From positions 1,969-65,968 of the forward strand of contig JANLHI010000021.1 in assembly GCA_024654525.1 (NCBI GenBank): a stretch of DNA of 64,000 bases, read 5' to 3'. Positions 18,442-34,172 of the stretch are shown one piece after another. The translations under genes were made by a program, and so were the position numbers. Under the pieces are notes generated by a model. That model did not search any database. It saw only the letters and a program-made list of their open reading frames with translations, and was not told the origin of the DNA. Each line of letters begins with the position of its first letter. Positions within the stretch are counted from its first letter, which is position 1. The DNA is from Patescibacteria group bacterium (lineage in GTDB: Bacteria > Patescibacteriota > Minisyncoccia > UBA6257 > 2-01-FULL-56-20).

Positions 18442-19477
18442 TTATATATCGGCACTTTCAATCTCTGCTTCGATAAACATGCTCAAATCACCCTCAAGCA
18501 CTTTATTTACCTGCGAGGTCTCGACTTCCGTACGATGGTCTTTCACCAATTGATACGGATTCAGTACATACGACCTAATTTGATTTCCCCACTCCGGCTT
18601 CACTTTGATACGAATATTTGAAAGCTCTTCTATATGATGTTTCTCCATAAGTTGCACTATCTTCGCCTTCAAAAGACGCAGGGCGTACTCGCGGTTTTGC
18701 TGTTGAGAACGCTCGACGCGGGAGCTTACCGCAATACCGGTAGGAATGTGGACAATACGCACCGCAGTCTCTACTTTATTTACGTTCTGCCCTCCCGGCC
18801 CACCGGCGCGCGAGAATTCAAATTTTAAATCTCCTTCGGGAATCACCACTTTCGACTCCTCTACGGGAGGAAGATCGGGTACCACTTCCACAAGCGCAAA
18901 TGCGGTATGACGAAGTTTTTTCGGGGAAAACGGGGAAATACGCACAAGCCGATGCACTCCGGATTCTTTTTTCAGATATCCGAAAGCATATTGCCCTTTT
19001 ACTTCAATCATTCTGCTACGGGGGTTATCATCCACAATTCGCGTTTTCCATTCCTGTAACTCGGCATACTTTATATACATTTCCGCAAGCATCCGCGCCC
19101 AATCCTCTGCATCCTCTCCTCCCGCACCGGGATAGAACGAAAGTATCGCCGATTGCGTGTCATATTTTCCTTTAAATAATTCCTTGAGTTCTAAAAAGCG
19201 AAATTTTCTTTTTATATCGTAATAAAGACTTTCATCGAATAATGATTCAAGTTTTATGATTCCTTCTTCTACTTCCTCATATTGATCCGTGAGATCGCGA
19301 AGTATTCCGAGTTGTTTAATCTTCTCGTCGGCAATCGTTCGATTACCCCAAAACTCAGGCTCACTTATCGCCTTTTCAATCGCCTCTATCTCCTTTTTTT
19401 TAGCCGTTACGTCAAAGCCGCCCGCCTAACCGGCGGGCTTCGATTGCAAATTCCTCTAGCTGCGCTTTGAAATCCAT
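18442..19477 (-). CDS. prfB: Peptide chain release factor 2, expressed via a +1 programmed ribosomal frameshift
   Basis: Frame 0 (from ATG at about 19477) encodes MDFKAQLEEFAIEARRLGGRL followed by TGA within CTT TGA C (about 19411-19417). The +1 frame continues DVTAKKKEIEAIEK... into the listed ORF 18442..19092, which contains the GGQ motif (SRAGGPGGQNVNK) and an SPF-type RF2 region. Confidence 0.85.
19411..19417 (-). other. prfB +1 frameshift site CTT TGA C
   Basis: The canonical RF2 autoregulatory frameshift heptamer, located at codon 21-22 of prfB. Confidence 0.8.
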
Positions 19478-21722: not shown

Positions 21723-21756
21723 TGCATAAATAATTTCATTACCACAACGGGGTTAG

Positions 21757-22071
21757 TTAATATTCATGAGTATCTATTGTACTCCGCTCAAACCTACTTT
21801 TGCAAAAACCCCTGACTTCGCACGCGCCTCGCCTGCGCCGACCTGTCTGCCGTGCCAACGGCACAGGTAGAGGCTTCGCGGGCAGATAGCCATGGACGAT
21901 CCTACTGTGCCCCTTCGTAGCTTTCTTGTCCGCCGAAGCTTTAGCGAAGGTGGAGCGAAGTAGGAACGGAAATGCCCGAGGCTCATTTACGTATGTGCTT
22001 GCCCCGACCCTCCCATGCACACGCAAACCCGCCGTCTCCAGCTTGCTTCGCGCCAGAGATGGCGGGACTCC
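21757..22071. other. GC-rich, ORF-poor 315-nt noncoding region with several hairpins; possible structured ncRNA or intergenic repeat element
   Basis: Local GC is clearly above the flanking sequence. Contains a GTGCC-AAC-GGCAC hairpin. Shares the 8-mers CGCCTGCG, GCGGGCAG, GCCGAAGC and CGGAAATG with the 29400-29560 region. Has only partial resemblance to the RNase P P4 strand (GGAAATGCCCGAGGCTC). Confidence 0.3.
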
Positions 22072-24336
22072 CTAAAGTTTCTTTATCTCACCCAATACCT
22101 CCTCAACATTCCCTGTATGCACGAGAAAGAAATGCTGGTCTTTACCGAGTTTCGCCCATAGTTCACCAATCTCAATCTTGTATGCCGTGTCTTCATTGCT
22201 CACGCGATCGCCGCCTTTCCACTCAAGCGCGATAATCGCGCCTTTATTGGTGACCGCGATAAAGTCGGGGTAAAACTTTCCTTTCTTCCAACCTTGGATA
22301 AAGAACGGGTCCACCTTCTCGCGACTGCGCACCCAGTATTTAATGTTCGCGAGGGTGTCCAAGTCAAGACGTTGAACAAACTCGTGTTCCTCCTTGTTTA
22401 GCTTGTCAATTTTCTCGTAGTAGTTTCGATTGAACTCTTGCGGCACGGCGCGTTTTAGCGTGATGGTGTCGGGAAATGCCTTAAACGGCTTTGTAGAAAC
22501 CTTCCCTGCTTTCATCTTGGTGTCGAACTGTGTCTTCGCATACGCTTCGAGAACAGATTCGATGTGCTGGCTCAAACGATCCGCGAGCACGAAGCGATTT
22601 ACCGAAAGCTCCGCAAGCGAATGTGTTTTGAGTTGATGGTCAATCGCCTTGTCCAAGAAGCGCACCTTGTCCGACTTCTCAAGAATCGTGAAGCGCAGTT
22701 TTTTATCGAGCCATTGTACAAGCTCCTCTTTGGTAAGGTTTTTGTCCGAGTATTTCAACTTGAGCGACATTTGTACTCCTCGTATCCACGCATCATCTTC
22801 CCGGATGTCAATAATCGCGCGACCATCACTGTCATAATGCACTTCAAAATCAAATTTCGGGTCTTGCTTCGCAAGCTCAAAATCACTGCCGATCAAATCC
22901 TCAAAGGTGAGCTTGTCGCCATCAAGCGCCATGAGTGGCACTTTGAGGATCCCGGACACTGCCTTCTTTGCTTCAAGTTCGTATACAGCATCTTTCTTTT
23001 CAGCGCTTACGATGTCTGCTCGGCTGTATCCGTTGTCTTCAAGTCCGGAGATAATCTGGTTCGCCGCCTCGTTAAAGTTTCGCGCCGAGGCAAACACATA
23101 GCTTCGGTTAAAATCTTCGTCGGTTTTCCGCTTCGCATTCGGCATGCGGATAATGCGCCCGATAATCTGTTCCACGGCAATTTTCGAGCCGAGGTTCGCA
23201 ACAGAGACGAGTACATACGCAAACGCGCAGTCCCATCCTTCCGCAAGCGCGTTGACGGTGATGATGTAGCGTATTTTGCAGGTTTTGCTAAAGAGGTTCA
23301 CGCCTTCAAGATCGTTCTTATCCGATGTCTTGATAGCGATTTCTTCTTCGGGAATTTTTCGCTCCAAAAGAAAAGCTTTTATCTCCTCCACGGTAACGGT
23401 CTTGTTCACCGAGCTTTTTGGCTGTGCCTGCAAGAGTGCTATCGGCCGGATGTACTCGTTCTTTATTTTCTTCGCTCCTTTTTCAAGTTCAATGCGCTTT
23501 TCAATACCGTTCGTGAGCGCGTTTTGCCACTGCGCCGCACTTTCAAGCACAATAGGAATTTTGACCATCTGCTCATCTTTCAATTCAGACGCATGTACCT
23601 CAAAGAGAATATTGCTTTCCTTGAGCGGCGTGGCAGTGTACTCAACAACAAATGCGGGGTTGAGACCGTTTATAGTTTCAAGAGACAAATCCGAAGTCGC
23701 CTTATGTCCCTCGTCGATGACTATAATCGGATTATTCAAACGAATGGTGTTTGCGAGCGAGTTAATGACCGTGCCTTCCTCGTCGCGCTCTAAATATTCC
23801 GGCTCCTCAATATTTTCAAAATGATCCATCAACGAGCCGTTCTCTTGGTACACCTTGTATTTGCCTTGCTTCTGCTTTTTCTTATTGAACGCCGCAAAGC
23901 TGGCTACGATAATGCAAAGATTATCGCTCACATCCGCCTTGCGGATAGCAAGAGCTTCTTCGTTTGAGAATACACGCACATGGTTGTCATACGATTCATC
24001 ATGAATCTGGCGGTGCGGGTCTTTGCGGTCTTTCAGTTTTTTGAGCGTTTGCGTTTTAATTGCTTCGGAAGGTGTAAACCACAACACAACGCCACGATCC
24101 ATCTTGTCTTGAAGTGCTTTGCTCATTATTTTCTCAACCGCGTGACACCCGACGAGCGTCTTGCCTCCACCGGTCGGTATTTTAATGCAGACAAACGGCA
24201 CTTCGCCAAATGCCTCCGCTTTGTACGGGTTTTCGGTGATGCCCATAAAGGCATACCTCAACCCGACTTTCCGAAGTTCGACCAGAAAGTTCTCAAGCGT
24301 TTCTAAACTATTCTTTTGGTATCGTTTTAGTTGCAT
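22072..24336 (-). CDS. res: Type III restriction endonuclease, Res subunit (SF2 helicase plus nuclease)
   Basis: Helicase motif I PTGGGKT and motif II DEGH. 754 aa. Lies immediately downstream of the mod gene on the same strand. Confidence 0.8.
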   Translation of the reverse strand: MQLKRYQKNSLETLENFLVELRKVGLRYAFMGITENPYKAEAFGEVPFVCIKIPTGGGKTLVGCHAVEKIMSKALQDKMDRGVVLWFTPSEAIKTQTLKKLKDRKDPHRQIHDESYDNHVRVFSNEEALAIRKADVSDNLCIIVASFAAFNKKKQKQGKYKVYQENGSLMDHFENIEEPEYLERDEEGTVINSLANTIRLNNPIIVIDEGHKATSDLSLETINGLNPAFVVEYTATPLKESNILFEVHASELKDEQMVKIPIVLESAAQWQNALTNGIEKRIELEKGAKKIKNEYIRPIALLQAQPKSSVNKTVTVEEIKAFLLERKIPEEEIAIKTSDKNDLEGVNLFSKTCKIRYIITVNALAEGWDCAFAYVLVSVANLGSKIAVEQIIGRIIRMPNAKRKTDEDFNRSYVFASARNFNEAANQIISGLEDNGYSRADIVSAEKKDAVYELEAKKAVSGILKVPLMALDGDKLTFEDLIGSDFELAKQDPKFDFEVHYDSDGRAIIDIREDDAWIRGVQMSLKLKYSDKNLTKEELVQWLDKKLRFTILEKSDKVRFLDKAIDHQLKTHSLAELSVNRFVLADRLSQHIESVLEAYAKTQFDTKMKAGKVSTKPFKAFPDTITLKRAVPQEFNRNYYEKIDKLNKEEHEFVQRLDLDTLANIKYWVRSREKVDPFFIQGWKKGKFYPDFIAVTNKGAIIALEWKGGDRVSNEDTAYKIEIGELWAKLGKDQHFFLVHTGNVEEVLGEIKKL

Positions 24337-24340
24337 ATAA

Positions 24341-25873
24341 TTAATATACTTTCACCTCGTACGGAATCTGCTTAAAGACGATGTTATGAGCGGCAAGTGT
24401 GTCGTCGTCCAATAGACATCGGTCTGCGTAGACTATCTTCTTTTTATCAGAATCTCCAATCGTCTTGAGTGTCGCCTTGTCGAGCTCATTTTTGTTCTTT
24501 CCCTTGTAGAGAAGATAGTATTCGGTGTCGCCATACTCGCCGATATAGTTGCCACTGATTTTCTTTGGGTCAATATTTGTTTGCGTTTCGGTGAAGTAGA
24601 TATAAGTGGCAAATTGTTTAAAATCGCAGGTTTCTTCGATCTGTCCATCCTCGTTGAAAAGCGGCTTGTCTAACTCGCAATACTCAAAGCCGTCATTGTA
24701 GTCGTACTTTTTGATAGCCCGCTTCACGCGCTCGGCAGTAATGTCTCTTGCAACCTTATCTTCCATTTCCACGAGGATAAATTTCCGGCTTCCACCGTCT
24801 TCTTTGTTTAAGTCCAAAACAGCTTGCGCTGTTGTACCGGAGCCTGCAAATGAGTCCAAAATGAGAGAGTCTTTTTGCGAAGCTAGTTCAAGAATTCTTT
24901 TGATCAAACCGACGGGTTTTGGCGTCTCAAAAATACCTCCATCAAAAAGATTAATAATCTCATTCTTACCTTCCTTGTTTGTCGCAACGTCTGTCCAAAT
25001 GTTGCTTGCCGGAATACCCGTGCTCTCGTGCGCATAAATCACGCGCTGAGGTACACCGTCGCCTTTCATGCCAAAATAAATCTTGCCCTCACTCAGTAGA
25101 CGTTTATAGCTTTCCTCCGGGTATGCCCATTCTCTTTTGTGTTTTTTGCCAGAAGGCGTAACTATTTCGTAAGTATATCCACCACTTTTATGCCCCTTTG
25201 TTGTGGCTATGGGTACCGGTCTCCACTTTCCGTTTGGAAATTCTTTTGTCGGCGGTTTGTATGCAGTTTCAATATAAGCTTCGCTGAGAGAAAGCAAATT
25301 AAGTTGGGCGATTTTGGAACGAGCATACACAACGATATATTCTGCCTTTACCGTGATATTTCTACTATCGTTTGAGCTCTCTTTCTTCCGTTGCCATGTG
25401 ACGGTCGTAACGTGATTTTCTTCAAGAAAAATCTCATCCATAGCACCACGAAGATTGCAGTGCTCATTTTCATCAACAGAAATAAATATAAATCCGTCGT
25501 CTGTTAGTAAATCGCGCAAAAGTTTCAGGCGCGGATACATCATGCAAAGCCACTTGTCGTGACGCGTTAAATCTTCCGACTCTTTTCCGACAACTTTGCC
25601 AAGCCACTGTTTTATCTTTGGTGAGTTTACTTTGTCGTTATAAACCCACCCTTCGTTGCCGGTATTGTACGGAGGATCAATGTAAATACATTTAACTTTG
25701 CCGACATAGTGTGGCATCAATGCTTTAAGCGCTTCCAAATTGTCGCCGTGCACTATGAGGTTTTTTGAATGCTCGCCAACAGACGCACCTTTTACTTTCT
25801 TGAACAACTTAAAAGGAACCTCCTTATCGTGGTTTACAACTGCATCTTTACCTATCCAGTTTAGCGTTGCCAT
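24341..25873 (-). CDS. mod: Type III R-M DNA methyltransferase, Mod subunit (N6-adenine or N4-cytosine MTase, DPPY type)
   Basis: Motif IV CIYIDPPYNTG and motif I LILDSFAGSGTTAQAV; 510 aa. Confidence 0.85.
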   Translation of the reverse strand: MATLNWIGKDAVVNHDKEVPFKLFKKVKGASVGEHSKNLIVHGDNLEALKALMPHYVGKVKCIYIDPPYNTGNEGWVYNDKVNSPKIKQWLGKVVGKESEDLTRHDKWLCMMYPRLKLLRDLLTDDGFIFISVDENEHCNLRGAMDEIFLEENHVTTVTWQRKKESSNDSRNITVKAEYIVVYARSKIAQLNLLSLSEAYIETAYKPPTKEFPNGKWRPVPIATTKGHKSGGYTYEIVTPSGKKHKREWAYPEESYKRLLSEGKIYFGMKGDGVPQRVIYAHESTGIPASNIWTDVATNKEGKNEIINLFDGGIFETPKPVGLIKRILELASQKDSLILDSFAGSGTTAQAVLDLNKEDGGSRKFILVEMEDKVARDITAERVKRAIKKYDYNDGFEYCELDKPLFNEDGQIEETCDFKQFATYIYFTETQTNIDPKKISGNYIGEYGDTEYYLLYKGKNKNELDKATLKTIGDSDKKKIVYADRCLLDDDTLAAHNIVFKQIPYEVKVY

Positions 25874-25990: not shown

Positions 25991-26019
25991 TTGACTTTTT
26001 ATTGTACATAGTCTAGGAT
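25991..26019 (+). promoter_or_regulatory. Candidate sigma70-type promoter of the higB cassette (TTGACT, 17-nt spacer, TAGGAT) with a TGTACA palindrome in the spacer
   Basis: Sequence inspection only. A TTGTTgggAACAA inverted repeat lies just downstream and could be an operator. Confidence 0.3.
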
Positions 26020-26061
26020 AGAGTTGTTGGGAACAAATTATTAGTATGAAATACTTCCACA

Positions 26062-26349
26062 ATGAGATTACTGGGCAAACAACAGCTACACGACTTTAAG
26101 GAAAAACATGCTGATGCCCGGTCGCAGGTCGAATCGTGGGAGGCGGAAGTCGAGAGCGCGGAGTGGAAAACCCCTCACGAACTCAAGAGTAGGTTCCCTA
26201 GCGTAGATACACCCGGTAACCAGCAAGCCATTTTCAATATATGTGGCAACAAATACCGGCTGTGGGCACAGGTAGAGTATAAGCAAGGAATCGTGTTAGT
26301 AAAGAGGATTGGAACACATAAGGAATACAGCAAGTGGAAAATCGTATAA
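26062..26349 (+). CDS. higB: Type II toxin HigB family (RelE/ParE superfamily mRNA interferase)
   Basis: 95 aa. NQQAIFNICGNKYRLWAQVEYKQGIVLVKRIGTHKEYSK matches the HigB_toxin family pattern (F.I.GN.YRL...IGTH.EY). Confidence 0.7.
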   Translation: MRLLGKQQLHDFKEKHADARSQVESWEAEVESAEWKTPHELKSRFPSVDTPGNQQAIFNICGNKYRLWAQVEYKQGIVLVKRIGTHKEYSKWKIV

Positions 26350-26355
26350 AAAGCC

Positions 26356-27603
26356 ATGACCCAAATAAAAGTTATAAAAAATCAAAAAGACTACGAAGAA
26401 GCTCTCAAGCTCATTGAGGGGCTTATGAACCGTAGCCCTGACCCCAACAGCGACGAAGGTGCACAACTTGAACTTCTTAGCGTCCTTATTGAGGACTACG
26501 AGTCAAGACAATTCCCTAGTGCACTTCCTAGTCCTGTCGAGGCAATCAGATTCCGCATGGAACAAAGCGACCTCAAACCGGTTGATCTCGTACCCTACCT
26601 CGGTAGCCGTAGCCGTGTTTCTGAAATCCTTTCCGGAAAACGACAACTCACGCTTGATATGGTTCGTGCTCTTTCTACGGGTCTTGGTATTCCGGAAAAG
26701 GTGCTTGTCCAAAAACCGAATCAATCGGAAGAATCGCGTTATGAACGCTGGGATATACGCATAGTCCGGGCTATGGAAAGCTACGGGTACTTCGGGAACA
26801 AAACGCTAAAGAAATTCAACAAGGGCGAACTACTGAAAAAATATTTTGGCTCTTTTGGTGGAAACTTACAACCAGTAGCACTTCTCCGTGCCAGTATCAG
26901 CCATCGTTCTGCCCCAAGAACAGATACTGGGGCATTGGATGCATGGAAAATTCGCGTGCTACAAAAAGCAGAGAAAATAAAAACGTCTGTTAAATACAAA
27001 CACGGGGTTATTGATGTTGATTTCATGCGCAAGCTCGTCAAATTAAGCACAAAAAAAGACGGGCCAACTTTGGCGTGCGAAGAATTAAAAAAGATAGGAA
27101 TCAAAGTGGTGATTGAACGACATCTTCCAAAAACTTTCCTCGATGGTGCAGCTATTCTAGAAGATAAAGACAATCCTGTAATCGGCATCACACTTCGACA
27201 TGACCGACTAGATAACTTCTGGTTTACGCTTATGCATGAGGTGGCTCACGTAGCACTACACTGCGATCAAAATATCAGCACTTTTTACGATGAGAAATTG
27301 CTAGAAAAGAACGGAGGGCAAATGACAGAAGAAGAACAGAAACGGGAACGTGAAGCCGACGAATGGGCGGAGGAAGCCATTTTACCGGAGAGTAAGTGGG
27401 AGATTAGTAACGCAAAAATCACTCCATCACCCATGGCAGCACAAAGTCTCGCTAACGAACTCAGTATTCACGTTGCCGTAGTTGCTGGTGTTGTGCGATT
27501 CAAACATCAAAATTTCTTCTACTTGAACAAGATCGTTAATGACGAAACTGCAAAAGTACGCCGACTATTTCCTGATGCGTTTAAAGCAAAAACAGTAACA
27601 TGA
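26356..27603 (+). CDS. HigA-like antitoxin (helical N-domain plus XRE HTH) fused to an ImmA/IrrE (DUF955, M78-like) metallopeptidase domain
   Basis: Residues 1-135 mirror the E. coli HigA architecture (YEEALKLIEGLMNRSPDPNSDEGAQLELLSVLIEDYE, then LGSRSRVSEILSGKRQLTLDMVRALSTGLGI). The C-terminal region carries the HExxH motif HEVAHVALH with downstream Glu residues, typical of ImmA/IrrE. Confidence 0.7.
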   Translation: MTQIKVIKNQKDYEEALKLIEGLMNRSPDPNSDEGAQLELLSVLIEDYESRQFPSALPSPVEAIRFRMEQSDLKPVDLVPYLGSRSRVSEILSGKRQLTLDMVRALSTGLGIPEKVLVQKPNQSEESRYERWDIRIVRAMESYGYFGNKTLKKFNKGELLKKYFGSFGGNLQPVALLRASISHRSAPRTDTGALDAWKIRVLQKAEKIKTSVKYKHGVIDVDFMRKLVKLSTKKDGPTLACEELKKIGIKVVIERHLPKTFLDGAAILEDKDNPVIGITLRHDRLDNFWFTLMHEVAHVALHCDQNISTFYDEKLLEKNGGQMTEEEQKREREADEWAEEAILPESKWEISNAKITPSPMAAQSLANELSIHVAVVAGVVRFKHQNFFYLNKIVNDETAKVRRLFPDAFKAKTVT

Positions 27604-28715
27604 CAGCTATAAAACCCTACATTCCTATACTTCGCTCACGACCTGCTGAAATGCTGGCACTTGAACGCATGTATCCGCAAGATCGCGAACAGATTACACC
27701 GTTTATCGAGTTCATCATGCCACCACCAAAAACAGACAAAGATGATCGCACGAAGATTGTCGAGGACTCTAGAAGTAAACTTCTCAGACAACTATCAGAT
27801 GTTGGCGTGCGACTTCTCAAGTATTGTGGTAGAGAAGCAGTATTTATAGACGTGCATCTACTCGACGGGGATATACGTGCAGATGCGTTTGAAAGCATTC
27901 TTTCGGCAACAAACGAAGTTGATCTCTTCTCAATTCCCGTTGTTCATATTGTCCCTGTTATAGGTACAGATGCGGACATGGCAACACGAGAAGTGGCTGT
28001 GAAATACGCAAAAATCAACGACAGAGGTATGTGTATTCGTATTGATATTTCTCATTTCAAAGACGAGAATCTTGTGACTCACATTGATGAGTTCATAAAA
28101 GACAGTGATCTTGATATAAAAAATATTGATATTTTGGTTGACCTTCAAATCGTTGATGAGAGCACAACAGCAGAATCCGTCGTTGGAAAACTTAATCGTC
28201 TTCCGCAAATCAAATCCTGCCGCTCTTTTATTCTTACGGGAGGAGCATTTCCAAAAGATCTCTCAGAATACCCCAAACATGGGAACTACCAACGAGAACG
28301 GCTTGACTATGCGCTTTGGCAAAGCGTAAGTAACTTGATTACAAGTCGAAAACCGTATTTCTCTGACTACACAATCCAACATCCTATTTACTACGGCAAC
28401 ATGCCCGGTGTGAACCCTAGCGCTAGCGTACGGTACACAAACGATACCCAATGGGAGATTATTCGAGGTGAAGGTTTGAGAAATAAAAAAGGGGCAGGAT
28501 TCAAACAGTATTTGGCACATGCACGAGAGATAATTCAACAGCCATTCTACAAGAACGCCGATTATAGTTTTGGGGATTCAGAAATTAACCGTATTGCTTC
28601 GCAGGATGAAAAGACAGGAAATCCGCAACTGTGGCTAAACATTGGTATCAACCACCATTTGACGCTAGTGGCGAAACAACTCGCTGACTTTCGCGAGAAG
28701 ATAAAGCAGTCATAA
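27600..28715 (+). CDS. Uncharacterised 371-aa protein, translationally coupled to the HigA-ImmA gene (ATGA start/stop overlap)
   Basis: Clean ORF with coding-like composition. No motif I can assign with confidence. From memory only, it may belong to the sce7725 / beta-protein family that pairs with sce7726-type PD-(D/E)xK proteins. Confidence 0.5.
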   Translation: MTAIKPYIPILRSRPAEMLALERMYPQDREQITPFIEFIMPPPKTDKDDRTKIVEDSRSKLLRQLSDVGVRLLKYCGREAVFIDVHLLDGDIRADAFESILSATNEVDLFSIPVVHIVPVIGTDADMATREVAVKYAKINDRGMCIRIDISHFKDENLVTHIDEFIKDSDLDIKNIDILVDLQIVDESTTAESVVGKLNRLPQIKSCRSFILTGGAFPKDLSEYPKHGNYQRERLDYALWQSVSNLITSRKPYFSDYTIQHPIYYGNMPGVNPSASVRYTNDTQWEIIRGEGLRNKKGAGFKQYLAHAREIIQQPFYKNADYSFGDSEINRIASQDEKTGNPQLWLNIGINHHLTLVAKQLADFREKIKQS

Positions 28716-29301
28716 CGTGCCCTTTGAGCGCGTCGAGATCGTCCTTGAAGACCTCGGCAATCTTCTCGTGAATTACACTGCGGGATTTTGAACGAATGCC
28801 ATCAGCCGCGTTTCTCTCCTCCAAGATGCTTAGGGCCTGTGTGCGCCACAGCATTCGAGCTAGGGAAACAGGTACTTGAGCGTCTTCATTCTGTCTTGCC
28901 TCTCGAATCGTAAAGAAAACAACCTGTTGACCTGAGTCTATCTTTGCGAGATCAATACCCCACCATTCCGGGATCCGGTGAATCGCGTCGAGTAAATGAC
29001 GCTGACCAACAACGAGCGTTATCTTATCAAAAACTTCGTTGTACTCGTGGATCTGATCAAACAAGCGTGAGAGAGTATCTTTGTCGCTCTTAATCTCATA
29101 ACCGTGCATAACGCCGTTTATGACGGCCATATCGATTCGTGCCCTACCATGACTCACTCCTAGTTCCTCAAAAATGTCGGCCTGCTTACCAGTTTGCGTT
29201 CTATACTCGTCCAACTCTTTTTCAATACGCCGTCGCAATTCTATTCGTATGATGTGATCATTCGTGGAAACTATTTTTTTATTGAAATTTTGTGTTTCCA
29301 T
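28648..29301 (-). CDS. PD-(D/E)xK nuclease-fold protein (possibly sce7726-like), convergent to the 27600..28715 gene, with a 68-nt 3' overlap
   Basis: Motif GRARIDMAVINGVMHGYEIKSDKD fits the D...(E/D)xK catalytic core. 217 aa. Confidence 0.5.
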   Translation of the reverse strand: METQNFNKKIVSTNDHIIRIELRRRIEKELDEYRTQTGKQADIFEELGVSHGRARIDMAVINGVMHGYEIKSDKDTLSRLFDQIHEYNEVFDKITLVVGQRHLLDAIHRIPEWWGIDLAKIDSGQQVVFFTIREARQNEDAQVPVSLARMLWRTQALSILEERNAADGIRSKSRSVIHEKIAEVFKDDLDALKGHVMTALSSRESQRVVSPLASNGG

Positions 29302-29527: not shown

Positions 29528-29620
29528 AAAATAAAAAACATAGACAGCGGAAATGGGGCAGAGGGCCGGACGCGCCGCCAAAATTTCTGCCCCTAAAAAG
29601 CCAGTTGAGTTTGATTCTTG

Positions 29621-29692
29621 AGCCGGTGGTCGGATTTGAACCGACGACCCACGCTTTACGAAAGCGTTGCTCTGCCCCTGAGCTACACCGGC
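29621..29692 (-). tRNA. tRNA-Thr (anticodon CGU)
   Basis: Minus-strand sequence GCCGGTGTAGCTCAGGGGCAGAGCAACGCTTTCGTAAAGCGTGGGTCGTCGGTTCAAATCCGACCACCGGCT folds as a cloverleaf. Anticodon loop TTCGTAA, T-loop GGTTCAAATCC. CCA is not encoded. Confidence 0.85.
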
Positions 29693-29852: not shown

Positions 29853-32800
29853 ATGCCTAAATTCGTACACTTACATACTCACTCCCACTATTCGCTTCTC
29901 GATGGACTCGCAAAAATCGAAGACCTTGTGGCACGCACCAAAGAGCTCGGCATGGATACGCTTGCATTAACCGATCATGGCGTACTCTATGGTGCAGTAG
30001 AATTTTATAAAAAAACGAGAGCGGCGGGCATCAAACCCATCTTAGGAGTCGAAGCATACATTGCACCGAAGGAACGCCAAAATAAAGACGCGGGAGACAG
30101 ATATTATCACCTTATTCTTCTTGCCGAAAATAATACGGGGTGGAAAAATCTCATAAAACTCGTAACAAAAGCACAGCTTGAAGGGTTTTATTACAAACCA
30201 CGGATGGATAAAGAACTTCTTCGCGAATATCACGAAGGCATTATCTCACTTTCAGGATGCTTCTCCGGAGAACTTGCGCGCGCCATTCTTGCGGGAGATT
30301 CCGGCGAAAAGATACTTAAGGAATATCAGGATATCTTCGGTCCGGAAAATTTCTTTATCGAGATAGGGTACCATCCTCACATCAATCGCGCAGAACACGA
30401 CAAACTTTGGAACGGCTTGATTGCACTTTCAAAAAAAACGGGGGCTCCTCTTGTCGCCACACAAGACCTTCACTATGCGCGCCCCGAAGACCGCGACTAC
30501 CATGATATATTGCTTGCGGTTCAAACCGGGAGCAATTTGAGCGACCAAGACAGACTCACCCTCAAAGCGGATGACTTTTCCATGACGTCTCCCGAGGATA
30601 TGGCAGAAAAATTCAAAGATATTCCCGAAGCGGTAACGAACACCGTTCGCATCGCCGAACGATGCAATGTAACACTGGAACTTGGAAAAACTCAACTTCC
30701 CGAATTTCCAAAACCCGAAGGGATAAGCGCGAACGAGTATGTCCGCACGCTTGCCACCGAAGGATTAACACGCCGATTTCCCGGTATCACATGCACACAA
30801 GAAGCGAAAGATCGTCTTGAGTATGAGCTTGGCGTTATAGAAAAAACAGGATTTGCGGATTATTTCCTTATTGTCCAAGACCTTACCGGATGGGCGCGCG
30901 CGCATGGCATTGCGGTCGGTCCGGGCCGTGGTTCTGCGGCGGGAAGTCTGGTTTCCTATGTTCTGGGTATTACCGATATTAATCCTTTGAAATACGGATT
31001 ACTCTTCGAACGATTCTTGAATCCGGAGCGTATTCAAATGCCCGATATCGACATTGATTTTGCCGATGCGCGAAGAGACGAAGTACTTGCCTATGCCCGT
31101 CAAAAATACGGAGAAGACCACGTAGCGCAAATAATTACATTCGGGACTATGGCAGCACGTGCCGCAGTGAGGGATGCGGGACGGGCAATGGGTTTGCCGT
31201 ACGGTTTTTGCGATCAAATCGCGAAACTCATCCCTTTCAATGCATCGATCAAGGAATCTATTGACCAAGTACCCGAGCTTGCGGACATGGCTAAACAAAA
31301 CGAAGAAGCGCGCCGACTCTTGGACGCCGCACAACATCTTGAGGGTGTCGCACGACATGCATCGGTACACGCATGCGGTACGGTGATTACAAAAAAACCC
31401 CTCACCGAATATCTTCCTCTTCAATATGCCCCGCAAGACAGAGCGGTGATTATTACACAGTTTGAAATGCATTCCGTGGAAGACTTAGGACTTCTTAAAA
31501 TGGATCTTCTTGGGCTCCGAAACCTCACTATCATCGAGGAAACCGTGCGACTTGTGAAAAATATCCGCGGCGAAGATATTTATATTTCCGATCTTCCACT
31601 CGACGATGCCGCGACATATTCCCTTCTTCAAGCGGGTAACACTACCGGTGTGTTCCAATTCGAATGCCTTTCGGAAGAAACGATCGTATCCAATACCACC
31701 ATTAAAAAGCTCTACGAGCGGAAGAATAAGAAGACACTCGAGTCGGTATATGTCGACGAAGGGAAAGTACATAAAAATAAAATCCTTGGTGTCGCGAAAA
31801 GCGGCGTGAAAGACGTGTATGCGCTTGTCGCCGAGAACGGGTGGTATATCAAATCTTCTGCGGACCATAATTTTCTTACCGAGAACGGATGGAAGAAACT
31901 TTCGGATATTCGACCCGGCGAAAAGATACTCATGAAGACAAAAGCAAAGCACCTCGTCTATAACGCGTGCGCACGTTGCGGGAGGCAAATTAGCGGACAA
32001 AAAGAAGGACACAGCACATTCTGCTACACGTGTTCAGCTCGCGTATATAGCAACCCCAGCAAACCGATCTCGCGCACAAAAATGAAGGTCGCGCGAACGC
32101 GGTTTTTCGAACGAGGCGGAACAGTATGGAACGAAGGCGTAACGACCGAAAATAACGAGACTTGGCGTGCAACCGCGGAAAAAATATCGCATGCGCTCAC
32201 TGGCGTATCCATTGAAACGCGATGGGGCAAGAAAAAAGCCGCGGAGATAAAAGCCCGGTTGTCGCAAAGGTTTAGAGGCGCGGGGAATCCAATGTTCGGC
32301 AAACCTGCTCCCCACCGCAAAGGAGGCGTGCGAGGAGATTTGGGCCACTATGTGCGTTCAAATTGGGAAGCGGATTTTGCACGAATCCTCAAACTGTATG
32401 GAATCGCATATGAATATGAACCGAGATCCTTTACTCTTCAAAACTCGCGGGGAGAGGTAATGCATTATACTCCCGATTTTTACGTGAAAGCCACCAATAC
32501 TTTCTATGAAATAAAGGGATGGCTCCACGATATTGACCAGAAAAAAATGGACCTTTTCCGGCAACAGTATCCTGAATACAATTTTATTCTCATTAACAAA
32601 ACAAAGTTTGCGGAACTGGCGATGCGCTACCGCAGTCTTGTCGCTTGGGAATGTCCGAGGGTTCCTACAGAACGAAGTTTTAAATTTATAAAAGTGAGGG
32701 AAGTGCGGTACGCAGGAAAAGAAGAAACGTATGACATCGCGATGGAAGCACCCGGAAATAACTTCGTGGCAAATGGATTCGTCGTGCATAACTCGAGCGG

Positions 32801-34172
32801 CATGCGTCGCTATATGAAAGATATCCATCCCACCGAACTGGAAGATTTAATTGCGCTTGTGGCACTTTTCCGCCCCGGTCCCATGGAGCTTATTCCCACA
32901 TTTATCAAACGAAAACGCGGTGAAGAAAAAATTGTGTATCTTCATCCTCGACTGGAACCTATTTTGAAAAACACCAACGGCATTGGCGTATATCAGGAGC
33001 AAATGATGCAGATTGCCCGCGATCTTGCAGGCTACACACTCCCCGAAGCAGACACGCTTCGAAAAGCAATCGGTAAAAAAATAAAATCGCTTCTTGACGA
33101 ACAGAAAGTAAAACTTACGAATGGCATGATTAAAAATGGTATTCCTCAGAAAACCGCGGAAGCGATTTGGGAACTTTTTCCTCCCTTCGCACGCTACGGA
33201 TTTAACAAGTCGCACGCGGCATGCTACGCCCTGATCGGCTATCAGACCGCGTATCTTAAAGCTCATTATCCGGTTGAATCCATGGCGGCTCTTTTAAACG
33301 CAGAAGTCAGCGATATCGAACGTATTGCGTTTTTAGTCAATGAGGCACGGCAAACCGGAATATCCATCCTTCCTCCCGACGTAAACAGCAGTTTGGTCAA
33401 ATTCTCTCCGAATGGAGAAGAAGTGCGTTATGGGCTTCTCGGTATAAAGAATGTCGGGGAACAAATTGCGCAAGCAATAGTGGAAGAAAGGATACGGGGA
33501 GGCGCCTTCGAAAACTTCACTTCTTTTCTTGCACGCATTCAACATAAAGATTTAAATAAAAAATCACTCGAAAGTTTAGCAAAATGCGGCGCACTTGAAT
33601 CTCTTGATATAGAGCGCAATCAAGCTATCCAGAACATGGACGATATTGTCCGCTTTGCAGGAGTTGCGCGGAAAACCGCATCCCAAACCAATTCACTTTT
33701 TGGTAATTCAACCGCATCACTCTCCATTAAATTAAAACCCGCTCCTCCCGCAACGCGAGAAGAAAAACTCGGATGGGAAAAGGAGCTCCTTGGATTTTAT
33801 CTTTCTGATCATCCCCTGAATTCATTCAAGGAACAACTTGCTACTTTGCGTGCGCGAACGCTTACCGAACTTCGCACTATTAAAAACGAGAGTCTTACCA
33901 TACGCGCCGCAGGACTTATTACCACCATCAAAAAAATATTCACGAAAAAAGGAGATGCGATGATGTTTGTGACTATTGAAGACTTTTCCCCGCAACCCTT
34001 TGAAATAGTAATTTTCCCCCGCGTACTCGAAAAAACACAGGCAGTGTGGCAAGAAAACAATGTAGTCCTTCTTCAGGGAAAAATGTCTTGGCGTGGCGGA
34101 GAACCAAAAATCATCTGCGACGATGCAAGGAAATTGGAATTGCACCACACGGAGAAAAAAACGCCCGCTTAA
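29853..34172 (+). CDS. dnaE: DNA polymerase III alpha subunit, interrupted by an in-frame intein
   Basis: N-terminal PHP domain (HLHTHSHYSLLDG), polymerase core motifs, OB-fold C-terminus. 1439 aa including a 376-aa intein, leaving about 1063 aa of extein. Confidence 0.9.
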   Translation: MPKFVHLHTHSHYSLLDGLAKIEDLVARTKELGMDTLALTDHGVLYGAVEFYKKTRAAGIKPILGVEAYIAPKERQNKDAGDRYYHLILLAENNTGWKNLIKLVTKAQLEGFYYKPRMDKELLREYHEGIISLSGCFSGELARAILAGDSGEKILKEYQDIFGPENFFIEIGYHPHINRAEHDKLWNGLIALSKKTGAPLVATQDLHYARPEDRDYHDILLAVQTGSNLSDQDRLTLKADDFSMTSPEDMAEKFKDIPEAVTNTVRIAERCNVTLELGKTQLPEFPKPEGISANEYVRTLATEGLTRRFPGITCTQEAKDRLEYELGVIEKTGFADYFLIVQDLTGWARAHGIAVGPGRGSAAGSLVSYVLGITDINPLKYGLLFERFLNPERIQMPDIDIDFADARRDEVLAYARQKYGEDHVAQIITFGTMAARAAVRDAGRAMGLPYGFCDQIAKLIPFNASIKESIDQVPELADMAKQNEEARRLLDAAQHLEGVARHASVHACGTVITKKPLTEYLPLQYAPQDRAVIITQFEMHSVEDLGLLKMDLLGLRNLTIIEETVRLVKNIRGEDIYISDLPLDDAATYSLLQAGNTTGVFQFECLSEETIVSNTTIKKLYERKNKKTLESVYVDEGKVHKNKILGVAKSGVKDVYALVAENGWYIKSSADHNFLTENGWKKLSDIRPGEKILMKTKAKHLVYNACARCGRQISGQKEGHSTFCYTCSARVYSNPSKPISRTKMKVARTRFFERGGTVWNEGVTTENNETWRATAEKISHALTGVSIETRWGKKKAAEIKARLSQRFRGAGNPMFGKPAPHRKGGVRGDLGHYVRSNWEADFARILKLYGIAYEYEPRSFTLQNSRGEVMHYTPDFYVKATNTFYEIKGWLHDIDQKKMDLFRQQYPEYNFILINKTKFAELAMRYRSLVAWECPRVPTERSFKFIKVREVRYAGKEETYDIAMEAPGNNFVANGFVVHNSSGMRRYMKDIHPTELEDLIALVALFRPGPMELIPTFIKRKRGEEKIVYLHPRLEPILKNTNGIGVYQEQMMQIARDLAGYTLPEADTLRKAIGKKIKSLLDEQKVKLTNGMIKNGIPQKTAEAIWELFPPFARYGFNKSHAACYALIGYQTAYLKAHYPVESMAALLNAEVSDIERIAFLVNEARQTGISILPPDVNSSLVKFSPNGEEVRYGLLGIKNVGEQIAQAIVEERIRGGAFENFTSFLARIQHKDLNKKSLESLAKCGALESLDIERNQAIQNMDDIVRFAGVARKTASQTNSLFGNSTASLSIKLKPAPPATREEKLGWEKELLGFYLSDHPLNSFKEQLATLRARTLTELRTIKNESLTIRAAGLITTIKKIFTKKGDAMMFVTIEDFSPQPFEIVIFPRVLEKTQAVWQENNVVLLQGKMSWRGGEPKIICDDARKLELHHTEKKTPA
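31665..32792 (+). mobile_element. Intein in DnaE (Cys1...His-Asn, followed by Ser+1) carrying a homing-endonuclease-like insert with a Zn ribbon, a NUMOD-like segment and a PD-(D/E)xK-like motif
   Basis: The insertion splits the conserved GVFQFE / SSGMRRY extein junction. Block A CLSEET, block B SADHNFLT, block F/G ETYDIAMEAPGNNFVANGFVVHN then S. Internal CARCG...CYTC Zn ribbon and YTPDFYVKATNTFYEIKG. Confidence 0.8.

Follow-up and report, generated by a model that had tools for sequence, protein, structure and literature searches.

We analyzed a 64,000-nucleotide stretch of contig JANLHI010000021.1 of a Patescibacteria group bacterium (the whole stretch is hereafter called the window) and in particular the forward-strand open reading frame (ORF) at 26356-27603, which is open throughout, starts with ATG and encodes 415 amino acids. 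The product is very probably the B subunit of a PD-lambda-2-type abortive-infection phage-defense operon in a Patescibacteria genome. The genes are arranged in the order higB-like gene A, higA-M78 gene B and P4-beta-family gene C, followed by a convergent P4-cII-like gene D. The four genes and two modules of B are as follows, in window coordinates.

26062..26349, forward strand: gene A, a HigB-family RelE-like protein of 95 residues, of the long type with GNKYRL and GTHKEY, PD-Lambda-2_A (Pfam, PADLOC, PDB)
26356..27603, forward strand: gene B, a HigA-like helix-turn-helix (HTH) protein with an M78 ImmA/IrrE-type metallopeptidase, 415 residues, PD-Lambda-2_B (PADLOC)
26356..26715, forward strand: residues 1-120 of B, a two-part E. 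coli-type HigA module (phmmer against the PDB, Foldseek, AlphaFold2)
26923..27405, forward strand: residues ~190-350 of B, the M78 peptidase core (Pfam, PADLOC capP, Foldseek, invariant residues)
27600..28715, forward strand: gene C, a P4 beta-family protein of 371 residues, PD-Lambda-2_C (Pfam, PADLOC, BLASTP)
28648..29301, reverse strand: gene D, a P4 cII/sce7726-family protein of 217 residues, convergent with C (NCBIfam, PADLOC, BLASTP, Pfam)

All three PD-Lambda-2 components were matched by PADLOC, in the right order and on one strand: A to PD-Lambda-2_A (PDLC03981, E-value 3.9e-38), B to PD-Lambda-2_B over residues 1-407 and profile positions 1-398 of 402 (E-value 3.2e-139), and C to PD-Lambda-2_C (E-value 3.3e-51). 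The locus is firmly a member of the PD-lambda-2 family. A functional selection uncovered this system in E. coli ECOR42, where the first gene is described as HigB-like, the second as encoding a HigA-like Xre domain joined to a peptidase at the C-terminus, and the third as a relative of an antitoxin of phage P4 (Vassallo et al. 2022, PMC9519451). The E. coli system protects against lambda-vir via abortive infection; B is toxic by itself, A rescues the toxicity, and C is dispensable for neutralization but required for defense against lambda-vir (PMC9519451). A literature search for later mechanistic work on PD-lambda-2 found none. The HigB, ImmA/IrrE and beta trio is annotated in two complete E. 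coli genomes, where PADLOC also calls PD-Lambda-2. Window B is 36% identical to E. coli PD-lambda-2B over its full length (E-value 4e-85), the C proteins share 22% identity, and the A proteins 30% over 64 residues. The window and E. coli loci have the same three genes in the same order on the same strand, with the same B architecture and HExxH...E motif. They differ in that window A is a full-length HigB whereas A of the E. coli clade is truncated and degenerate, in the fourth, convergent cII/sce7726 gene of the window, and in the Patescibacteria host. The fusion of HigA to M78 is not a new architecture, and Xre-peptidase fusions 3' of toxin-like genes had already been noted in toxin-antitoxin surveys (PMC9519451); the locus is a variant with a fourth, P4 cII-like gene. 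The first-pass annotation of the ORF, made from the sequence without database searches, was sound in its domain calls and analogies but did not recognize the known three-gene system to which the PADLOC matches of A, B, and C belong.

The HigA module of B consists of an N-terminal helical part, which by analogy would bind HigB, and a five-helix Xre HTH at about residues 60-117; in the AlphaFold2 model the N-terminal helices span residues 10-25, 33-52, and 60-117. Crystallized E. coli/Shigella HigA (5ifg_B, 5ycl_A) aligns to residues 7-116 of B in a phmmer search of the PDB (E-values 5-7e-10). This alignment contains the segment pair GSRSRVSEILSGKRQLTL / GSKSMVSRVLSGKRKLTL, which the first-pass annotation had quoted when it placed an E. 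coli-type HigA at the N-terminus of the fusion, an assignment that is borne out. Together with the HigB gene upstream, the N-terminus of B is that of an E. coli-type HigA antitoxin, for which HigB binding and neutralization are predicted by homology. The domain search that had been suggested for the ORF agreed in part: Pfam Peptidase_M78 matched residues 270-347 with 29.9 bits against a cut-off of 22, whereas HTH_3 at residues 82-114 reached 22 bits, slightly below its cut-off of 23.

Beyond the HigA part, B has ~295 more residues: helices in the middle of the protein, then the M78 core, then a tail that is again helical. The sequence HEVAHVALH occupies residues 294-302, with HExxH at residues 294-298 (nucleotides 27235-27249), and the candidate third ligand, E331 (nucleotides 27346-27348), lies inside EREADEWAEE, the usual third-ligand helix of M78 peptidases. 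Residues H294, E295, H298, and E331 are invariant in an alignment of 11 homologs reaching down to 35% identity, and likewise across 62 closer homologs. An AlphaFold2 model built from the 62-sequence alignment has a mean predicted local distance difference test score (pLDDT) of 81 and a predicted template modeling score (pTM) of 0.65, with pLDDT above 87 over most of the peptidase core. Poorly ordered linkers were found at residues 120-123, 168-186, and 315-322; the C-terminus is all-helical, and no GAF-like domain was modeled.

When the model was compared with the PDB using Foldseek, the best matches were E. coli HigA structures (6kmq_B, 6kml_B, 6jq4, 5ycl), followed by CapP (7t5t; E-value 3.6e-3 over 182 columns) and PprI/IrrE (8sln, 3dti, 3dte, 8slm; E-values 0.014-0.027); for CapP and PprI/IrrE the E-values are modest and the probability is ~1.0. 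CapP and IrrE are the nearest solved structures to the peptidase part of B, and the PADLOC capP model matched residues 243-369, within the peptidase domain only (E-value 2.6e-8). On profile, motif, and fold, B is a member of the M78 family. The view that the remainder of the protein, carrying HEVAHVALH, resembles ImmA/IrrE is therefore upheld by the above-cut-off profile match and the invariant HExxH...E, and the likeness to ImmA/IrrE and CapP holds at the level of both profile and fold (Pfam, PADLOC, Foldseek). The outcome that would have overturned that view, no M78 match or an HExxH region in an unrelated fold, is contradicted by the profile match and by the CapP and PprI/IrrE folds. An identical B protein in NCBI is named 'ImmA/IrrE family metallo-endopeptidase [Patescibacteria group bacterium]'. 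We also observed that, among plasmid proteins, many that carry the annotation XRE family regulator match solely residues ~131-405 of B, at ~32-37% identity. Because they align just to this part, B may contain a mobile unit, made up of its helical middle, the M78 core, and the helices at the C-terminus, that is fused to different N-terminal HTH modules.

Gene A ends 6 nt before B on the same strand. It matches Pfam HigB_toxin over profile positions 2-73 of 74 (E-value 1.4e-25, 89.8 bits) and E. coli HigB in the PDB (5ifg_A/5ycl_B, E-value 1e-7), and its GNKYRL and GTHKEY segments are as in the crystallized E. coli protein. Compared with the HigB-HigA pair of E. coli K-12/Shigella (YgjN-YgjM; 5ifg, 5ycl, 6kml), A and residues ~1-120 of B are homologous and the toxin gene comes first in both; the canonical HigA, however, has 138 residues and no peptidase, the additional residues being fused to it in window B. 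An alignment of the A proteins divides them into two types. The GNxYR motif and the C-terminal GTHxEY are kept in window A, in its clade, and in the aligned A proteins from loci that lack a beta gene, whereas the A proteins of the E. coli PD-lambda-2 clade lack GNxYR and end before GTHxEY. The HigB_toxin scores divide likewise: 77-90 bits over profile positions 2-73 of 74 in the window's clade, and 18-32 bits (cut-off 27) in the E. coli clade, where the match stops at positions 63-66 of 74. Since the full-length HigB motifs are kept there, A in the window's clade may still be an active mRNA interferase, and the split fits the published role of E. coli A as a neutralizer and not a toxin. The locus belongs to a sister clade of the studied E. 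coli system, one with full-length HigB and a linked P4 cII-like gene.

The start of gene C overlaps the stop codon of B (ATGA). The C protein matches Pfam Beta_protein (E-value 1.4e-59) and the PADLOC 'beta' model (E-value 7.6e-13) in addition to PD-Lambda-2_C, and in BLASTP it aligns to P4 beta (E-value 2e-10) and to E. coli PD-lambda-2C (E-value 2e-16). The D protein matches NCBIfam sce7726_fam (E-value 2.1e-41), the PADLOC 'cll' model (E-value 3e-23), and P4 cII in BLASTP (E-value 2e-12), and it carries PF26915 Phage_P4_cII in precomputed Pfam annotation. Its AlphaFold2 model (pLDDT 88, pTM 0.83) has a core at residues 15-99 with the order alpha-beta-beta-beta-alpha-beta, followed by more strands and helices, and the invariant residues E46, D57, and E69-x-K71 lie on the first three strands. 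This layout corresponds to the classical PD-(D/E)xK arrangement, and D probably has a PD-(D/E)xK-like, nuclease-like fold. A relaxed Pfam scan of D-family members gave just faint matches to HSDR_N_2 (E-value 0.075).

The 3' ends of C and D overlap by 68 bp in the window (28648-28715) and, by ORF calls, by 25-95 bp in six related loci (L006-L011); a convergent C/D overlap is also present in L014 and L088. In P4, a gap of 27 nt lies between beta and cII; it contains the cII terminator annotated at 1720-1749, and this terminator reaches 4 nt into the cII stop region (NC_001609). Because the C/D overlap is conserved, it hints at antisense or transcriptional-interference coupling of the two genes.

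The order of genes in P4 is gop, beta, and convergent cII (NC_001609), and beta is forward and cII convergent in the window as well; HigB and HigA-M78 stand in the window where P4 has Gop. Window D, at 217 residues, lacks the C-terminal extension of the 264-residue P4 cII. Gop-beta-cII itself defends against lambda and P1, with Gop being toxic when beta is absent (Rousset et al. 2022, PMC9122126), and its reported trigger is a phage gene. Both systems would be of the abortive anti-lambda type with a toxin-antitoxin flavor, the window locus by analogy with its E. coli PD-lambda-2 homolog. Earlier work on the P4 genes is reportedly that of Ghisotti in 1990. We considered whether Gop itself might be a relative of the C-terminal part of B and rejected this candidate: the BLASTP E-value was above 1, and Gop did not match Peptidase_M78. 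P4 Gop is a protein of 133 residues whose best Pfam match is non-significant (E-value 0.026). The PADLOC 'gop' model, which recognizes P4 Gop at 4.8e-70, matched none of the six island proteins (A, B, C, D, and the Mod and Res proteins of a neighboring type III system) at an E-value of 0.01 or below.

Scanning one genome per species by pattern, we found at least 598 loci with a B relative, in very many phyla, and analyzed the best 80 of these using hidden Markov models (HMMs) built from the window and P4 proteins. A HigB-like gene lies directly upstream of B in 76 of 79 evaluable loci (75 by HMM, with L061 added by eye). Directly downstream of B, a beta-family gene is present in 15 of 72 evaluable loci, and a convergent cII-like gene accompanies beta in 7 of 14 (6 of 13 by HMM, with L014 added by eye). 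The HigB and HigA-M78 pair is thus far more widespread than the full PD-lambda-2 system. In a neighbor-joining tree of B, all beta-linked proteins form one clade with two branches. The first is proteobacterial, includes both E. coli loci, and has no cII; the second comprises the window and loci from Parcubacteria, Komeilibacteria, WWE3, Saccharibacteria, Dehalococcoidales, and Anaerolineaceae, most of which carry cII. The A-B-C-D layout recurs in L006-L011, L014, and L088, in several phyla and at 40-60% identity; in L088, an Acidoferrales contig, the four genes adjoin Hachiman genes. In place of cII, the two E. coli loci have a convergent gene for DUF6119 (L086, 8851-10500, reverse strand) or SIR2 (L087, 7287-8804, reverse strand), neither of which was needed by the published three-gene construct. 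For P0204, a Dehalococcoides cII homolog, a look-up returned no record.

In the loci without beta, the downstream genes are mutually unrelated, with the exception of one ORF cluster shared by three loci (L029, L032, and L059; 149-175 residues). Several look defense-like by sequence, among them restriction-modification (RM) subunits, AbiEi-like proteins, and helicases. As a pattern, the notion that these variable genes are alternative third components was rejected, the genes being singletons save for the three-member cluster. Two plasmids, from Neorhizobium (L004, 1183-3452) and Paraburkholderia (L005, 5512-5907), carry the HigB/HigA-M78 pair without beta next to multiubiquitin, ThiF, and DUF6527 genes, a defense cluster of the ubiquitin-like conjugation type.

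For the working of this locus we propose a mechanism of five steps, all of which are hypotheses. A would bind the N-terminal HigA module of B, as in the HigBA crystal complexes, giving a mutually neutralized A:B complex, and the Xre HTH of B would probably autorepress the operon. The M78 domain of B would be an active zinc peptidase, because its HExxH...E motif is invariant. C, and in this locus perhaps D too, would help to sense infection, whereupon the peptidase would cut B, likeliest in the linkers at residues 120-123 or 168-186, or a partner, and the complex would dissolve. The released full-length HigB, a ribosome-dependent mRNA endonuclease, would be the likely executioner in this clade and would stop translation. 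As a possible PD-(D/E)xK nuclease, D could contribute DNA-directed activity or sensing. The cleavage and release part of this scheme is possible, short of probable. Cleavage, which the first-pass annotation had proposed to occur in cis or in trans upon a signal, is more plausible for the window's clade than for the E. coli clade because the HigB of the former keeps the full set of motifs that the latter has lost.

Several points weigh against this reading. In E. coli it is B that is toxic and not the HigB-like A, and the killing step may therefore be something other than HigB release (PMC9519451); abortive infection, B toxicity, neutralization by A, and the requirement for C are properties measured for the E. 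coli ECOR42 homolog only. C is missing next to about 79% of the B homologs (57 of 72 evaluable), which shows that the A-B pair can exist alone. A catalytic role for the His/Tyr segment GTHxEY of A is an inference from other RelE-superfamily toxins, and a literature search for the catalytic residues of PF09907 HigB gave nothing usable. For D, Foldseek returned only weak matches (E-values above 0.04), and sequence profiles found no relatives of C or D of solved structure in the PDB. Upstream of A there is no inverted repeat of at least 7 nt, and no convincing operator palindrome was found.

The upstream sequence, a 188-bp divergent intergenic region between the HigB-like gene and the Mod gene of the type III system, contains one promoter candidate.

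25991..26019, forward strand: candidate sigma-70-type promoter, TTGACT-17 nt-TAGGAT (consensus scan only)

Promoter-like sites are no more numerous in this region than in shuffled sequences. A single TTGGGAAC half-site lies at 26027-26034, just 3' of the candidate -10 element. Perfect palindromes stand upstream of the HigB-like gene in two related loci: CAATATTCCCAA-T-TTGGGAATATTG at 2612-2636 of L009 and GTTCCCA-nnn-TGGGAAC at 5661-5677 of L010. With TTCCCA/TGGGAA recurring in some relatives, the window's TTGGGAAC may weakly suggest a putative operator half-site for the HigA-type HTH.

The main rival to HigB release is a reversed toxin-antitoxin system like that of E. coli, in which the M78 peptidase of B would be a toxin that cleaves essential host or phage proteins, A only its inhibitor, and C, with or without D, the factor that releases B; the HigB RNase would play no part. 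In its favor stands the direct experimental result that E. coli B is toxic alone and is rescued by co-expressed A (PMC9519451), although toxicity of overexpressed B could also come from the HTH or from titration. The peptidase motif is invariant across the family, and the short A proteins of the E. coli clade, with their low HigB_toxin scores and missing GTHxEY, fit a non-catalytic inhibitor. However, window A and most A proteins of the family keep the full HigB motifs, with scores of 77-90 bits, which is hard to explain for a mere inhibitor. We regard the reversed arrangement as possible in the window's clade, short of probable.

Less likely still is that B acts mainly as a repressor or antitoxin that is cleaved upon a signal and combines in one chain the parts of an ImmR/ImmA or CapH/CapP pair; it would answer DNA damage or single-stranded DNA, and its main role would be to switch on neighboring defense genes. 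Like B, ImmA/ImmR, IrrE(PprI)/DdrO, and CapP/CapH associate a zinc peptidase of M78 fold and motif with an HTH of the Xre type, the gene lies in a defense islet, and homologous A-B pairs adjoin varied defense genes (RM, AbiE, helicases, and ubiquitin-like systems). The capP profile match and the CapP and PprI/IrrE structural matches speak for this view. In those systems, however, protease and HTH substrate are two distinct proteins, whereas B is one chain with a RelE-like toxin partner. B therefore departs from the CapH/CapP arrangement of cyclic oligonucleotide-based antiphage signaling systems (CBASS), and Pfam and PADLOC identified no cGAS/DncV-like nucleotidyltransferase (CD-NTase) or CBASS effector in the islet, where the neighbors are type III RM, beta, and cII. 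A C-terminal GAF-like domain is present in CapP and IrrE, but the model of B has only helices at its C-terminus. In the sample of 80 loci, the beta-family gene is the only recurrent downstream partner apart from the three-locus ORF, and singleton neighbors fit random placement in defense islands better than dedicated regulation. The near-universal HigB partner marks a toxin-antitoxin core and not a pure regulator, and the toxicity of E. coli B on its own (PMC9519451) points the same way.

The weakest alternative, a plain chromosomal addiction or stress module of HigBA-like type with an extra domain on its antitoxin and with C and D as unrelated neighbors that have no role in phage defense, draws on the many B homologs without beta and on the resemblance of A and the B N-terminus to canonical HigBA, but is very improbable given the overlap of the B stop with the C start, the single clade formed by C-linked B proteins, the four-gene layout kept across phyla, and the need of the E. 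coli homolog for C in defense (PMC9519451). Both the CapH/CapP-like switch and the addiction module are less likely than an operon of the PD-lambda-2 type because HigB is near-universal, because translation of C is coupled to that of B, and because several phyla keep the four-gene layout.

The PD-lambda-2-type operon is divergent from a type III RM pair (22072..25873, reverse strand), and together they make up a defense islet of ~8 kb bounded by a tRNA gene.

22072-24336, reverse strand: type III Res (PADLOC REase_III, E-value 1.8e-97; Pfam ResIII)
24341-25873, reverse strand: type III Mod (PADLOC MTase_III, E-value 1e-165; Pfam N6_N4_Mtase)
29620..29692, reverse strand: tRNA-Thr(CGT), bounding the islet (ARAGORN, Rfam)

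Beyond the islet, Pfam identifies housekeeping genes, with an asparaginase and an EamA transporter upstream and DnaE downstream. An integrative element at the tRNA-Thr gene was considered and rejected: no att-like direct repeat was found between 21600 and 29800, there is no integrase among the annotated ORFs, and no anomaly of composition was found.

Other features of the window were observed in passing. A GC-rich spacer of ~350 bp (gap 21723-22071) separates the EamA transporter and type III Res genes, and the forward strand at 21790-22075 folds far better than shuffled sequences (minimum free energy -108.8 kcal/mol, z = -3.88, 0 of 200 shuffles as good), whereas the reverse strand of the same region shows no excess folding (z = -0.63). 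This region has no Rfam match even at an E-value of 1 or below, and its forward strand may encode an unannotated structured RNA. The DnaE gene (DNA polymerase III alpha; 29853-34172, forward strand) is broken by an intein of ~370 residues (Intein_splicing, residues 614-980), which holds a Phage_endo_I-like endonuclease segment at residues 833-920. A release factor 2-like gene lies at 18442-19417 on the reverse strand; its ORF at 18442-19092 contains RF-1 and only the C-terminal part of PCRF, and a CTTTGAC on that strand, at 19417-19411, corresponds to the classical site of the prfB +1 programmed frameshift. An AdoCbl-II (cobalamin) riboswitch aptamer at 122-238 on the forward strand, scoring 38.1 bits against the Rfam gathering threshold of 36.5, lies upstream of an ORF at 398-2257.

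The window locus and its relatives link PD-lambda-2 with P4 gop-beta-cII through a common beta/cII module, and the locus is an example of how a reduced Patescibacteria genome holds type III RM and PD-lambda-2 in a compact defense islet. Within a much larger family of HigB/HigA-M78 pairs that spans phyla, PD-lambda-2 proper makes up one clade. Because the studied E. coli clade is atypical, with its truncated HigB and absence of cII, the assignment of B as toxin and A as antitoxin may not hold family-wide. It is conceivable, though we advance it only cautiously, that beta and cII are a conserved sensor or effector core which pairs with exchangeable toxin modules, namely HigB with HigA-M78 in PD-lambda-2 and Gop in P4. 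The four-gene form of the window, with a catalytically complete HigB and a PD-(D/E)xK-like cII, would then be complete or ancestral and the E. coli three-gene form reduced, with cII lost and HigB decayed to a pure inhibitor. In that event the M78 peptidase would be a signal-processing switch between a beta/cII sensor and a HigB executioner. The comparative pattern gives testable leads on how this defense system works.

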